A DNA stretch of 64,000 nucleotides from Puniceicoccaceae bacterium (GTDB lineage: Bacteria; Verrucomicrobiota; Verrucomicrobiia; Opitutales; Oceanipulchritudinaceae), in assembly GCA_040830765.1 (NCBI GenBank), contig JBFOMH010000007.1:4563-68562 (forward strand), written 5' to 3'. Below, in pieces: positions 42,238 to 63,048 of the stretch. The position numbers and the translations under genes are program-made. Within the stretch, counting starts at the first letter, position 1; the number at the start of each line of letters is the position of its first letter. The notes under the pieces were generated by a model. That model was not told where the DNA came from. It was given only the letters and a program-made list of their open reading frames with translations, and searched no databases.

Positions 42238-42572
42238 TTCCCCGCGTAAATCATTCGTTCCCCGCGTAAATCATTCGTTCCCCGCGTTGAAACGCGGGTC
42301 TGATCTCCCGCCATCCCGACGGGATGGCATTACCAATAGGCCCTGGTTTTAACCAGGGCTAGGTGTGGCATTGAATCATTCGTTCCCCGCGTTGAAACGC
42401 GGGTCTGACCTCCGCCATCCCGACGGGATGGCAATATCAATAAGCCCTGGTTTTAACCGGGGCTGGGACGGGCCGCGATACACCATTCGTTCCCCGCGTT
42501 GAAACGCGGGTCTGATCTCCCGCCATCCCGACGGGATGGCATTACCAATAGGCCCTGGTTTTAACCAGGGCT
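42238..42572. repeat. Cluster of three REP/REPIN-like triple-hairpin units preceded by a 20-bp tandem duplication
   Basis: Hairpin A CCCGCGTTGAAACGCGGG at 42281, 42386 and 42493. Each is followed by B GCCATCCCGACGGGATGGC and C GCCCTGGTTTTAACC(A/G)GGGC. TTCCCCGCGTAAATCATTCG occurs twice at 42238-42277. Confidence 0.92.
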
Positions 42573-42606
42573 TGCCATCGAATCCTCCCGAGACTAACTC
42601 GGATGC

Positions 42607-59314: not shown

Positions 59315-59463
59315 TTCCCCGCGTTGAAACGCGGGCCTCACCTCTCCCGTCCCGTCGGGACGGGAATATCCATAAACCCGGGTTTTAACCCGGGGCCACC
59401 AATGCCGGTTACATCCCGTCCCATCGGGACGGGTTGATGTATAAACCCGGGTTTTAACCCGGG
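59315..59463. repeat. REP-like hairpin cluster (A-B-C-B-C)
   Basis: A at 59318-59335, B CCCGTCCCGTCGGGACGGG at 59346-59364, C CCCGGGTTTTAACCCGGG at 59377-59394, then a second B and C. Confidence 0.9.
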
Positions 59464-59568
59464 ACTGCCAACAATCCAAAATGACTAACACGTTGGCTTG
59501 AACAGTCCATGTAAGAAAAAGGGAATATTGATAAGTTGTTACCATCGAATGATCCGCAGAACTTAGTC

Positions 59569-59805
59569 ATGAGCCCGATTGCCACTGCCCTTTGCTTCCT
59601 GTCCTCCGCCGTAATTGTCCTGTCCTTCTTTTTTGCCGTGCGCTGCCTCTTTGTCCATGAAAGGCGCCTGGAGGCCTGGCGTTCAACGGTCAAGCACGTC
59701 ATCTATGTCACGCGGAAGACTTTCAAGCGTATCGTTCTCGCACTTGGATGCCTCTCCCTGATGGTCTTTCTCGTGGCAACCTACTTCCAAATAGCCCCGC
59801 GTTAA
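59569..59805 (+). CDS. Small two-TM hypothetical protein (~78 aa) between REP clusters
   Basis: Two hydrophobic segments separated by a basic loop. The last codons and stop come from a partial A hairpin. Confidence 0.5.
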   Translation: MSPIATALCFLSSAVIVLSFFFAVRCLFVHERRLEAWRSTVKHVIYVTRKTFKRIVLALGCLSLMVFLVATYFQIAPR

Positions 59806-59962
59806 AACAATTCCCGTCCCGATGGGACGGGTTTATTCAATAGGCCCGGGTTTTAACACGGGGTCACCAATACCGATTACATCCCCGCGTTGAAACGCGG
59901 GGCTCATCTCATCCCGTCCCGTCGGGACGGGAATATCCATAAACCAGGGTTTCAACCCGGGC
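59795..59962. repeat. REP-like hairpin cluster (partial A-B-C, then A-B-C) downstream of tnpA
   Basis: CCCCGCGTTAAAAC at 59795; full A at ~59883; B and C hairpins with a few mismatches. Confidence 0.88.
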
Positions 59963-59978
59963 CTATTTACCTGGGCCG

Positions 59979-60425
59979 CTAATCCCAAAGATATCGCTCG
60001 TTGTATTCAACACCCGCCTTGTCCAAGAGATATGTATACTCACCCTTGAATGATTGGCGCCTGTGATGTTCCTCCTGATTCTGGATATACCGCTTGACCG
60101 AATTCAATGCTGAGGTGCTGACACTAAATGCGGCATATTCCTTCTGCCAGGCAAACCGCAATTCCAACAGGTGCGACTCGTTCAACCACCGCGATGATCC
60201 TCCCTTGATGAGCTGCATAGCCCTGCTCAAAGGCATCGTTGCGGGAATCGAGAGGAGAATATGGACATGATCCTCAACACCACCAACTTCAATTGCTTCC
60301 ATGCCAACAGCTCTTGCGATCCCTCCCATGTAAGGCCACAAGTGTGAGCGGATCATTGGAGTCAGTAGCGGTTCACGGCGCTTTGTGCTGAAGACACAAT
60401 GGAAATGCGCACTGATGTAGGACAT
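59979..60425 (-). mobile_element. tnpA: HUH Y1 transposase (IS200/IS605 TnpA-like / REP-associated), no tnpB
   Basis: HFHCVFSTKRR, DHVHILL (HUH), IKGGSSRW, FAWQKEY and RYIQNQEEHH (catalytic Tyr); flanked on both sides by palindromic units. Confidence 0.92.
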
Positions 60426-60530
60426 TCCGGTATTCCCACAATACCGGTCTACCGGGACAATCCATTGGATTACCTGAAATTAACCAGCCCCGGACGCAAA
60501 CGCTACCATCCCGGATTCGAACGCAACCAT

Positions 60531-60815
60531 CCCCGCGTTGAAACGCGGGGCTAATCTCCCCCGTCCCATCGGGACGGGATTATACATAAACCCGGGTCAT
60601 CAATGCCGATCCAACCACCCCCGCGTTGAAACGCGGGGCTAATCTCCCCCCGTCCCATCGGGACGGGATTATACATAAACCCGGGTTTCAACCCGGGTCA
60701 TCGATGCCGATCAAACCTTCCCCGCGTTAAAACGCGGGGCTAACACATCCCGTCCCATCGGGACGGGTTGACGCAGAAACCCGGGTTTCAACCCGGGTCA
60801 TCGGGACGGGATGGC
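60531..60815. repeat. Three REP-like A-B-C units upstream of tnpA
   Basis: A hairpins at 60531, 60619 and 60720. The first unit has lost half of C. A trailing half-B lies at ~60801-60815. Confidence 0.92.
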
Positions 60816-60831: not shown

Positions 60832-62070
60832 CTACCGCACCGCCAGCACGTCTTTTTCGTAGGTCTTGACGGCGTCAAGCAGGGCCGCCTCGCCTGGGAC
60901 ATCATTCCGCGAGCAGAATTCCTCCCAGACCACACTCCACGGGAGAGCCTTGTTCATCTCGAGAAGGGAAAGGCGGGTGGTGAAATCGCCGGCCAGTTCG
61001 GCCTCAAGAAGTTTTTCACGTGGCTCAAGCAACGCCATCAGGAGGCACTTCTGGGCGGAACGGGTCCCGATGGCCCAGGCGGCGATGCGGTTGATGGAGG
61101 CATCGAAGAAGTCGAGCCCGATATGTGTCCGCGGGAGCGCGTCGCAGCGGACCAGCTCCTGCATGATGGCCTGGGTCTGGTCGTCGAGCAGGACGACATG
61201 GTCGCTGTCCCAGCGGACCCCGCGGGAAACATGCAGCAGCAACTCCGGCACATACATGAGGACGGAAGAAATCTTGTCCGCGATGCTTTCAGTTGGGTGG
61301 AAGTGTCCGGCATCGAGACAGAGGGCCGTCTGGTTTTTGGCAGCATAGCCAAGATAGAACTCATGCGAGCCGACGACGTAGCTCTCCGAGCCAATGCCGA
61401 ACAGCTTGCACTCGACGGCATCGATGTTGTGGGCGGGATTTAATTTTTCCTCAAAAACGGCATCCAGGCTGGCTTCCAGTCGCTGGCGGTAGCCCAGCCG
61501 GTCGACCGGCTGGTCCTTCATTCCGTCCGGTATCCACACATTGGTAACGCAGGCGCTGCCGAGCTGCTCCCCGATGGCCGCCCCGATGGTGCGGCTGCGA
61601 CGGCAGTGCTCGATCCAGAAATCGCGGATGCCGGCATCCGGGCTACTCAGGGTGAGGCCGTCATCCGCCTTGGAATGAGAGAAGCAGGACGGATTGAAGT
61701 CCATCCCGAGCCCATTGGCCTTGCACCAGTCGATCCAGCCCTGGAAATGCTCCACCTCGATGGCATCGCGGTCGACCGTCTTGCCCCCGAAATCGCCGTA
61801 CATGGCATGGAGGTTCAGACGGTGATTACCCGGAAGGAGCGCGATTACCTGCTCAAGATCCTGACGTAGTTCAGCGATAGTCCGTGCCTTGCCAGGATAA
61901 TTGCCGGTCACGGCGAGACCACTGCCGAGTTCTCCGTCACCGCCTTCAAAGCCACCCACATCGTCACCCTGCCAGCAATGCAGGGAAATAGGGGTAGCGG
62001 ATAAAACTTCAAGGGCCTGTTCGGTGTCGACGCCGAGTTCGGCATAGAGGGATTTTACCTGTTCGTACAT
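60832..62070 (-). CDS. rhaA: L-rhamnose isomerase
   Basis: [84 protein letters not shown] and [11 protein letters not shown]. Start set at MYEQ. Confidence 0.95.
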
Positions 62071-62077
62071 GCTGGAG

Positions 62078-62106
62078 ATTATAGACTTCGCCCCAGAAAC
62101 CGTGAA
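62078..62106 (-). promoter_or_regulatory. sigma70 promoter for rhaA, probably giving a leaderless mRNA
   Basis: On the minus strand: TTCACG (62106-62101), 17 nt, perfect TATAAT (62083-62078), 7 nt, ATG (62070). Confidence 0.55.
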
Positions 62107-62163
62107 TGGACAGCCTGACAAAATATTTGCACTTTTTGACATCCACATGAAGATGAGCCGAAC

Positions 62164-63048
62164 ATGACAGGGGAACTCGAGAGCTTCAGCCGTTACCTCC
62201 CACCGGACAAGCAGTCCCGGCACTGGGGTTGGCGGCTGCTCGATGCTGGGCGGCAATCCATTCCTCCGCAGGCCCCTTATCCGGTACCGGGACATCCATT
62301 GGGATACCTCTTTGGCAAGGCCGGGAAGCGGACACTGGACGAGTTCCAAATCATCTTCATCACTGCCGGAAACGGGACCTTTGAATCCAAGTCAGCCCCG
62401 TTGACAACCGTGGGCTCCGGAGATGCCCTGCTGCTTTTTCCCCATGAATGGCATCGTTACCGCCCCGATCCGGAAACCGGCTGGAATGAATACTGGCTCG
62501 GTTTCCGGGGACAAGACGCGGAACGCGTAATGGGCACCTTTTTCGATCCTGCCTCACCGATCCGCCATCCCGCGCAAACGGATGAAATTATCCGGCTCTT
62601 CGAGCAAATGCTACACTGGCTGAAGAATCCGGTTGCGGGAATCGAGCAGGTCCTGGCCAGCCATGTCCCCCTCATCCTCGCCTTCCTTCAATCCGGCAGC
62701 CTGCACCAGGGAACATCCGGGATGGATGACTCCCAGTTGGTCCAGGTGGCAAAGTCACGAATCCTCCAGAACATCTCCTCGCGTACCGATCTGGCTGATC
62801 TGGCCCGTTCACTGGGGATCAGCTATTCCAAGTTTCGTGCGCTTTTCAAGGAACAGACGGGTTATTCTCCCCGTGAGTTTGAAAACCTGATCAAGCTCAA
62901 CCGGGCCCGTGACCTGCTCCAATCAGGCAACTACAGTGTTTCCTCCACCGCGGACGCCCTTGGCTATACCTCCGTCTATTACTTCTCGCGCGCCTTCAAG
63001 CGGCAGTTTGGTCAGTCGCCGCGCAACTGGCTGAATCAGTCGATGTGA
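62164..63048 (+). CDS. AraC-family transcriptional regulator, divergent from rhaA
   Basis: Cupin-like N-domain ([12 protein letters not shown]); C-terminal double HTH ([38 protein letters not shown]). Confidence 0.92.

Follow-up and report, generated by a model that had tools for sequence, protein, structure and literature searches.

A probable REPtron-like nest around an IS200-related Y1 transposase gene in a Puniceicoccaceae bacterium, built from hairpins that match Rfam Acido-Lenti-1

Does a solitary transposase gene that sits among palindromes belong together with them, and if so, in what kind of system? The question is raised by one locus in a 64,000-nucleotide stretch of DNA from Puniceicoccaceae bacterium (Verrucomicrobiota; GenBank assembly GCA_040830765.1, contig JBFOMH010000007.1, positions 4,563 to 68,562 of the forward strand), the whole of which is called the window here. 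The gene, tnpA, encodes a Y1/HUH single-strand-DNA transposase and is surrounded by repeat units of three hairpins, A, B and C. A first-pass annotation of the window proposed a REPtron-like locus, in analogy to the repetitive extragenic palindromes (REPs) and the REP-associated tyrosine transposases (RAYTs) of other bacteria. In essence this proposal is borne out: tnpA homologues are bracketed by the same hairpin design, gene and motif co-occur across genomes, and gene-less doublets multiply in relatives where tnpA stays at one or a few copies. The reading favored here, with a probability of about 0.72, is that the locus is a REPtron-like nest of an IS200-related system whose units are rearranged copies of the family's own three-hairpin end module.

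The locus contains four complete units, three partial units, and one fragment, about 100 nt each, in a single orientation on both sides of tnpA (Table 1); the first-pass count of about seven units in one orientation was accurate. Hairpin A is CCCCGCGT-TGAA-ACGCGGGG and hairpin C is ACCCGGGT-TTCA-ACCCGGGT, whereas hairpin B at this locus is CCCGTCCC-NNN-GGGACGGG, with seven occurrences in the window vs. none expected from shuffled sequences. Of 18 positions compared between hairpin A and the reverse complement of C, 16 are identical, and both contain the core GTTGAAAC. The two hairpins differ by one swapped base pair and lie about 60 nt apart with B between them, which is the inverted doublet described earlier. 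Folded as single-stranded DNA, each unit forms three separate hairpins on either strand (z about -6). The units are joined by a spacer of ~20 nt that aligns with the canonical inner spacer of related elements (see below), and deletions between short direct repeats (ATCCC, CCCGGGT, and ATCG) explain every partial unit, a signature of slippage. The earlier statement that no GTAG/GGAG foot is evident is correct for GT[AG]G itself, which is absent, yet a conserved xTAG-type flank does exist. This foot-like sequence is ATA(A/G)(A/G) on the 5' side of C and CTAAT, CTGAT, or CTTAG on the 3' side of A; on the opposite strand the A-side flank reads TTAG, TCAG, or CTAAG, and the relatives have AATAG / CTATT. 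The gene itself is flanked by the C hairpin of u4 and the A hairpin of u5, the topology of a canonical element.

The tnpA product is not a classical RAYT but a protein with an IS200-like fold and a subclass-1.2 signature. It scored 96.4 bits against Pfam Y1_Tnp (PF01797) and 70.9 bits against the NCBIfam IS200/IS605 model NF033573 (cut-off 55), but only 23.4 bits against the NCBIfam RAYT model REP_Tyr_transpos (NF047646; cut-off 80). A phmmer search of the PDB aligned it with IS608 TnpA (2a6m; E 2.8e-11), including the HUH and Y-x3-Q motifs, and returned no match to Escherichia coli TnpA-REP (4er8) at E < 0.01. When the AlphaFold (AF2) model (mean predicted local distance difference test score, pLDDT, 91.5) was compared with known structures using Foldseek, ranks 1-29 were occupied by IS200/IS605 TnpAs (IS608, ISDra2, and Sulfolobus; E 1e-9 to 1e-7) and TnpA-REP 4er8 first appeared at rank 30. 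The HUH motif is D52-H53-V54-H55, followed by W93-Q94 and the predicted catalytic Y113 in YIQNQEEHH; among 81 homologues, Y---Q--HH is found in 79, WQ in 78, and DHVH in 59. In the homologue alignment, F126 and E129 are invariant, the C-terminal tail forms helices at 126-136 and 143-146, and every invariant family residue is retained in the tnpA product. These motifs are those of TnpA-Y1 subclass 1.2 (DH[IV]H, WQ, and Y---Q--HH, exemplified by YIKNQKEHH) in Table 1 of Quentin, Siguier, Chandler, and Fichant (2018; PMC6006769), who described the subclass as lacking REP sequences, generally lacking insertion sequence (IS)-type ends, and occurring mostly in Cyanobacteria and Bacteroidetes. The initial placement of the protein as IS200-like stands for the fold, but the signature assigns it to subclass 1.2, which is neither RAYT nor subclass 1.1. 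The gene is present in a single copy in its own genome, and relatives contain one to four copies each, with 32-45% identity to it. As annotated at first, the 148-aa Y1 open reading frame (ORF) has no tnpB-like ORF adjoining it. Three further Y1 genes occur elsewhere in the genome (L002-L004; C13:85805-86068(-), C17:323439-323726(+), and C40:7939-8205(-)), in open frames of 171-223 aa with NHYH or DHIH and with YIHENP, YVNENP, or YIRMNP motifs. These are class-2 RAYT/TnpA-REP-like paralogues, unrelated to the A-B-C repeats.

Species-representative genomes contain at least 546 relatives of tnpA; the closest among the matches listed share 55-63% identity and are from subdivision-3 Verrucomicrobia, in a group termed the sister clade here. 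Homologues bracketed by inverted three-hairpin modules were found in at least six phyla, and the system is not specific to Verrucomicrobia as had been supposed. In the canonical setting, seen in subdivision-3 Verrucomicrobia, Planctomycetota, Acidobacteriota, and others, an 8-bp GC hairpin with a TTCA loop is located ~48 nt upstream of the gene and the same stem with a TGAA loop ~50 nt downstream. Beyond each main hairpin, via AATAG / CTATT, is an outer B-type hairpin, and a small inner hairpin together with GGCTGAAT / TTCAGCC adjoins the ORF. Read on either strand, the order is B, AATAG, TTCA hairpin, ~20 nt, inner hairpin, GGCTGAAT, tnpA, and then the mirror image, ending with the TGAA-loop hairpin, CTATT, and B. 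The stems vary by genome with covariation (for example, CCCGGCGT, CCCGCAGT, CCCAGCGA, CCCACCGT, CCGTGGGT, and CCCACGGC) and the TTCA/TGAA loops are constant. In 79 homologous loci, the 160 nt on either side of the gene were scored for perfect tetraloop hairpins with stems of 7 bp or more (TTYA upstream and TRAA downstream): 32 loci had the upstream TTYA hairpin, 28 the downstream TRAA hairpin, 24 both, and 20 the same stem in the two. Elsewhere in these loci, tetraloop hairpins of whatever type numbered only 64 in 334 kb. Units u4-u7 of the window were matched by a profile built from the sister-clade end module (E 1e-6 to 1e-10). Together with the homology of the spacers, these matches indicate that an A-B-C unit consists of two modules placed tail to tail, A-linker-B and, inverted, B-linker-C, with the outer hairpin B common to both. 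Several units in a row then correspond to collapsed doublets linked by the B hairpins that they have in common. The locus deviates from the canonical distances, with the upstream hairpin about 105-106 nt from the ATG rather than ~48 and the downstream C hairpin 17 nt past the stop codon rather than ~50. Within the extended leader, a hairpin at 60427-60447 (CCGGTATT-GTGGG-AATACCGG) abuts the tnpA start codon.

Two observations from other genomes concern the same design. In another verrucomicrobial genome (L244, G063:C8:54400-59000), a tnpA homologue lies within a run of same-strand matches to the Rfam model RF01687, including tandem stretches with a period of 153 nt; the architecture resembles that of the window, with a longer unit and more hairpins. 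In Terracidiphilus and Acidicapsa loci (L059-L098), one mismatch in the main hairpin is conserved at both ends of the element and appears as G.T in the TTCA-loop form. In the TGAA-loop form, which is the orientation used by Rfam, it is A.C. The asymmetry is at most a hint that the folding strand is the one opposite to the Rfam annotation; about five independent cases favor the TTCA-loop strand vs. two against.

RF01687, or Acido-Lenti-1, provides the link between the repeats and a known motif. Hairpins A and B of u7 (60720-60765) and u5 (60531-60576) matched the model and exceeded its gathering score of 37 (41.9 and 41.8 bits, respectively), and three further units scored 28-34.5 bits, below it. 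The A-B-C repeats are consequently not the new and distinct family first proposed, since A+B is RF01687. When 20 diverse tnpA loci were scanned at the Rfam gathering thresholds, 14 of them gave 30 matches, all to RF01687, typically with one match on each side of the gene pointing outward and with some matches from extra copies or arrays. Lentisphaera marina, which has seed-like copies, contains two tnpA homologues and 37 motif matches. Among 41 relatives from the same order, both gene and motif were present in 16, only the gene in 4, only the motif in 2, and neither in 19 (odds ratio 38, p 5.8e-6). In 151 high-quality genomes drawn evenly across the phylum, the corresponding numbers were 9, 5, 4, and 133 (odds ratio 60, p 1.4e-8). 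These p values ignore phylogeny, and presence is patchy even within the genus. There were no RF01687 matches in 14 control genomes. Acido-Lenti-1 was described by Weinberg et al. (2010; PMC2864571) as a probable small RNA with covariation, the only remark being a loose proximity to group II introns in Lentisphaerae, and a preprint dated October 2026 (10.64898/2026.10.21.760802) still gives its function as unknown. A literature search found no paper tying subclass 1.2 to repeats or to Acido-Lenti-1. Bertels et al. (2017) reported a RAYT-like "IS200 Group 3" with abundant flanking 16-mers; this group may be the same clade as subclass 1.2.

The relatives also show the module without the gene. In the sister clade, the full element is a unit of ~610 bp, present twice per genome at 84-87% identity, with ends formed by inverted repeats of ~95 bp. 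Similarity stops just outside the outer hairpins, indicating that the gene and its ends form a discrete element in this clade. A stem-specific pattern occurred 2-18 times per genome in 12 sister-clade genomes and the reversed control pattern never; the matches comprise full elements, seen as +/- pairs with a distance of ~557-585 nt, gene-less doublets, in which the pairs are separated by 112-150 nt, and solos. In many copies, aaATTGAGATGCGCCC is found 25-45 nt outside one outer hairpin. Amplification is seen in a relative, G032 (1.3 Mb in 180 contigs), with one tnpA and at least 150 RF01687 motif matches. The copies (e.g., L142-L157) are mostly near-identical doublets of ~190 bp with sharp inverted ends, and many are located at contig ends, where they probably fragment the assembly. 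No target duplications were found around 10 of these doublets. Mobile ends inside hairpin B were considered and rejected because the conserved ends of the G032 doublets reach 10-16 nt beyond B. The pattern in G032, one enzyme gene and many non-autonomous palindromes, is REPIN/RAYT-like.

In the genome that carries the window (G000; 3.99 Mb in 40 contigs, 97% complete), exact and fuzzy patterns together with an nhmmer profile built from 12 units located the family at only three loci: the tnpA locus, a transposase-free array at 42 kb in the window, and two units on contig C28, for a total of 12 units. Units thus occur away from tnpA, and the three tandem units of the 42-kb cluster noted in the first-pass annotation were found at 42281-42575. 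They are preceded at 42238-42280 by stubs, two tandem 20-nt copies (CCCCGCGTAAATCATTCGTT) in which the left arm of A is fused to the inter-unit spacer. The Rfam model added two diverged solo motifs, at C32:17432-17477(-) and C3:167130-167174(-) (46 and 41 bits), with stems unlike those of the A-B-C family; these are probably relics of other sub-families. Hairpin A is nearly identical at all three loci, and the other stems have compensated variants: B' with GCCATCCC/GGGATGGC and C' with CCCTGG/CCAGGG in the 42-kb array, and a B stem of CATCATCCC/GGGATGATG on C28. In nine complete units, 95.4% of cells are paired, compared with at most 55% when the partners are slid, and five pairs changed on both sides. 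The high pairing and the double changes indicate that the hairpin structure is under selection. The family is small and old in this genome; the loci diverged long ago, with arrays growing by local tandem duplication and not by fresh insertion.

Table 1. Features of the tnpA locus and of the second array, in window coordinates
Feature	Position	Strand	Description
tnpA	59979-60425	-	148-aa Y1/HUH single-strand-DNA transposase, subclass-1.2 type, frame intact
tnpA leader	60426-60530	-	105 nt between upstream hairpin and ATG; ~55 nt longer than in canonical relatives
u1	59317-59395	+	Complete; A 59317-59336, B 59345-59365, C 59376-59395
u2	59414-59464	+	Partial; B 59414-59434, C 59445-59464; A and linker deleted between ATCCC direct repeats
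u3	59794-59863	+	Partial; truncated A 59794-59808 (left arm and loop only), B 59812-59832, C 59844-59863
u4	59883-59962	+	Complete; A 59883-59902, B 59912-59932, C 59943-59962
u5	60531-60598	+	Partial; A 60531-60550, B 60559-60579, truncated C 60590-60598 (deletion between CCCGGGT repeats)
u6	60619-60698	+	Complete; A 60619-60638, B 60648-60668, C 60679-60698
u7	60720-60798	+	Complete; A 60720-60739, B 60748-60768, C 60779-60798
Eighth-unit remnant	60799-60815	+	Right half of B hairpin fused to spacer; deletion between ATCG repeats
89-aa ORF	59536-59805	+	Two predicted membrane helices, no Pfam match; between u1-u2 and u3-u4
Second array, transposase-free	42238-42575	+	Two partial A stubs and three tandem A-B'-C' units (42281-42575)

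Judged by the similarity of its RhaA, the host is a member of Opitutia close to Coraliomargaritaceae and Cerasicoccus. The history of the locus can be followed in a sister species, G010, which is syntenic here (rhaA 89% identical, the region of a 173-aa ORF 93%, and the 89-aa ORF 80%) but, in the interval from the small ORF to rhaA, lacks both tnpA and the arrays. In place of u1-u2, G010 contains one hybrid hairpin that combines A's left arm with C's right arm, and at the 42-kb site it has one decaying unit with mismatches, compared with three perfect units in the window. These remnants indicate that the units predate the split from G010 and were later amplified in one lineage and eroded in the other. 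No units were found at the 42-kb site in the more distant congeners G008 and G009, whose empty spacers are too diverged to align with the occupied site. Where the genome under study has tnpA and its repeat units, the syntenic spacer of G010 (L125, G010:C127, reverse complement ~600-780) holds different, classical REP-like palindromes (GTAG-CCCCGC..GCGGGG and a second, long one, GTAGCCCGGGG...CCCCGGGGATAC) that have a GTAG foot. A tree of 101 homologues places the tnpA product as sister (98/82) to the tight subdivision-3 clade on a long branch of 0.74; homologues from the same genus fall in other clades, and phyla are intermixed. With the sister clade in a different verrucomicrobial class and congeners scattered, the gene was probably acquired horizontally and not by long vertical descent. 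The idea that the transposase had been domesticated was not upheld, given the discrete ~610-bp unit found twice per genome in the sister clade and a phylum-mixing tree that looks like horizontal spread.

The neighbors of tnpA are the 173-aa ORF and the 89-aa ORF, neither with a Pfam match, and rhaA. The open frame of the 89-aa ORF and its 80% nucleotide identity in the tnpA-less G010 locus mark it as a resident host gene and not part of the element, and on this sequence comparison it is probably a real small gene. The rhaA ORF (60832-62349, minus strand; 505 aa) has a TTG start ~90 aa upstream of Pfam RhaA and of the starts of most homologues, and the true start is probably further downstream.

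Among known systems, the enzyme of the locus resembles published members of subclass 1.2 in length (148 aa), the DH[IV]H, WQ, and YI.NQ.EHH motifs, a conserved C-terminal tail of ~30 aa, low copy number, and divergent copies. Unlike the published description, conserved three-hairpin inverted ends and gene-less derivatives are present here, as they are in Verrucomicrobiota, Planctomycetota, Acidobacteriota, Lentisphaerota, and others. The 46-nt two-hairpin model of RF01687 fits hairpin A, the CTA linker, and hairpin B, but whereas the catalogue lists a candidate small RNA, here the motif behaves as two-thirds of a transposase DNA end module and occurs in inverted pairs. With the E. coli REPtron (REPs or bacterial interspersed mosaic elements [BIMEs] plus TnpA-REP) and the Pseudomonas REPIN-RAYT system, the locus shares inverted palindromic repeats around a Y1 gene that is present once, amplification in trans of gene-less inverted doublets, a short conserved foot beside the stem, and repeats that are also dispersed (the 42-kb site, the C28 units, and the C32 and C3 solo motifs). 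As in BIMEs, two hairpin types alternate in tandem clusters, and the divergence of A and C parallels that of Y and Z REPs. The differences are an enzyme of class 1 (Y---Q, YIQNQ) instead of class 2 (Y---NP), a foot of (A/T)TAG or ATAA instead of GT[AG]G, a three-hairpin module, and about a dozen copies. REPINs likewise consist of two inverted REP-type hairpins with a short spacer, but the genome under study has three loci with tandem arrays and lacks a dispersed population of near-identical doublets, which G032 does have. The IS200/IS605 elements IS608 and ISDra2 are similar in fold, catalytic residues, the Y-x3-Q helix, and hairpins near both ends, and the sister-clade unit adds defined limits and gene-less copies. 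IS608-type elements, however, have non-inverted ends and one active strand, whereas the ends here are inverted and both strands present a 5' TTCA hairpin and a 3' TGAA hairpin. Subclass 1.1 further differs in its W[TS] motif and near-identical copies, compared with WQ, a single copy, and no tnpB here, and even the sister-clade copies within a genome are only 84-87% identical.

By analogy to IS608, ISDra2, and E. coli TnpA-REP, the system would act on DNA that is single-stranded at the replication fork, where TnpA would bind the folded A or C hairpin and its xTAG/CTAxT flank. Cleavage would proceed through Y113 with an HUH-bound metal, followed by rejoining of the ends, and segments bounded by hairpins would be excised and re-inserted, with gene-less palindromes multiplying in trans. 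The ends mirror each other, and the enzyme would thus meet the same substrate layout on either strand. In the genome under study, units would have occupied three loci before the split from the sister species, after which each locus would have evolved its own compensated stems, and array length would later have changed by tandem duplication and slippage deletion. With its inner end modules decayed, the tnpA gene has probably lost its own mobility; any action of its product would be in trans.

Several results weigh against the REPtron-like reading. The canonical inner hairpin and GGCTGAAT box were unrecognizable beside the tnpA of the window when searched with the sister-clade end-module profile. 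The family is tiny in this genome (12 units and two solo motifs), and its units are more alike within a locus than between loci, which gives no sign of recent transposition here. The first-pass proposal that TnpA spreads the repeats fits the relatives, in which gene-less copies were amplified, better than the few, old, tandem-grown units of this genome. Five of the 14 tnpA-positive genomes in the phylum sample have no RF01687 match, and none was found in a genome of the Bacteroidota genus Chryseobacterium with five homologues. The RF01687 model misses some clades, and the Chryseobacterium result may explain the lack of repeats in the 2018 survey, which drew heavily on Bacteroidetes and Cyanobacteria. 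Two of eight sister-clade doublets are flanked by direct repeats of 16-20 bp, which IS200/IS605 chemistry does not predict (20 bp at L107, G042:C4, and 16 bp at L118, G051:C94; control maximum 13); these repeats and aaATTGAGATGCGCCC may be target duplications, a preferred target, or longer element ends. Finally, the covariation fits DNA and RNA structure alike.

Some of the same evidence could be explained if the system here is an extinct relic, with arrays that persist by host slippage or recombination, perhaps retained for a BIME-type role in the host (transcript-end stabilization, termination, or protein binding), and a tnpA inert toward them. The locus-specific stem variants, the change in copy number at 42 kb (three here and one in the sister species), the deletions between short direct repeats that account for all partial units, the decayed inner ends of the gene, and the long terminal branch of the protein (0.74) would all be expected from such a relic. 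It is nonetheless considered rather unlikely, since the ORF is intact with all invariant family residues kept, hairpin A is almost identical across the three loci, and the hairpins are perfect here but mismatched in the G010 unit, which is without a close cognate gene. That an ordinary mobile IS200 inserted by chance into an unrelated, pre-existing hairpin array is very hard to credit: the NCBIfam label (IS200/IS605 family transposase) and the same orientation of units on both sides, as in an interrupted array, are compatible with it, but the same hairpin design stands at fixed distances beside homologues in other phyla, gene and motif co-occur, and the single-copy gene has a W-Q and Y---Q--HH signature absent from ordinary IS200.

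A role at the RNA level, with Acido-Lenti-1 as a genuine small RNA or untranslated region (UTR) structure that regulates the transposase or its neighbors, for example as an antisense RNA or terminator, is what Rfam and the 2010 rating as a probable RNA with covariation would suggest, and the downstream copy would fall in the 3' UTR of tnpA. This is judged improbable. Both the gene and the gene-less doublets have outward-pointing motifs at their two ends, on opposite strands, so one transcript cannot hold the pair, and the hairpins are not followed by a T-run. At least 150 near-identical matches in one small genome, many of them at contig ends, is the behavior of mobile DNA. Weak evidence in the same direction comes from three independent cases of conserved mismatches that are A.C when read as in Rfam and G.T on the opposite strand. 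At somewhat better than even odds, we propose that Acido-Lenti-1 is not an RNA gene but the single-strand-DNA recognition module of subclass-1.2 Y1 transposases. Enzyme and module would together make up a second system of the REP/RAYT kind, one that has its root in class 1 (IS200) and extends across at least six phyla.

If this is true, the system would represent a living intermediate stage on the way from IS200 to domesticated RAYTs, in which either DNA strand could be processed through mirror-symmetric ends. Two orphans would then explain each other: an abundant Rfam motif that has lacked a known function since 2010 and a transposase subclass published in 2018 without REPs or IS ends. The pair of gene and hairpin would offer a testable model for the origin of REP/RAYT systems from IS200-type elements, and the reagents, a 148-aa enzyme and ~20-nt hairpins, would be compact. 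For annotators, it is a warning that RF01687 matches are probably mobile-DNA repeats and not small RNA genes. In the Puniceicoccaceae genome itself, it would account for the repeat-rich spacers around the rhamnose and lactate genes, and gain, tandem amplification, and decay can be dated relative to one another by comparison with the sister species.

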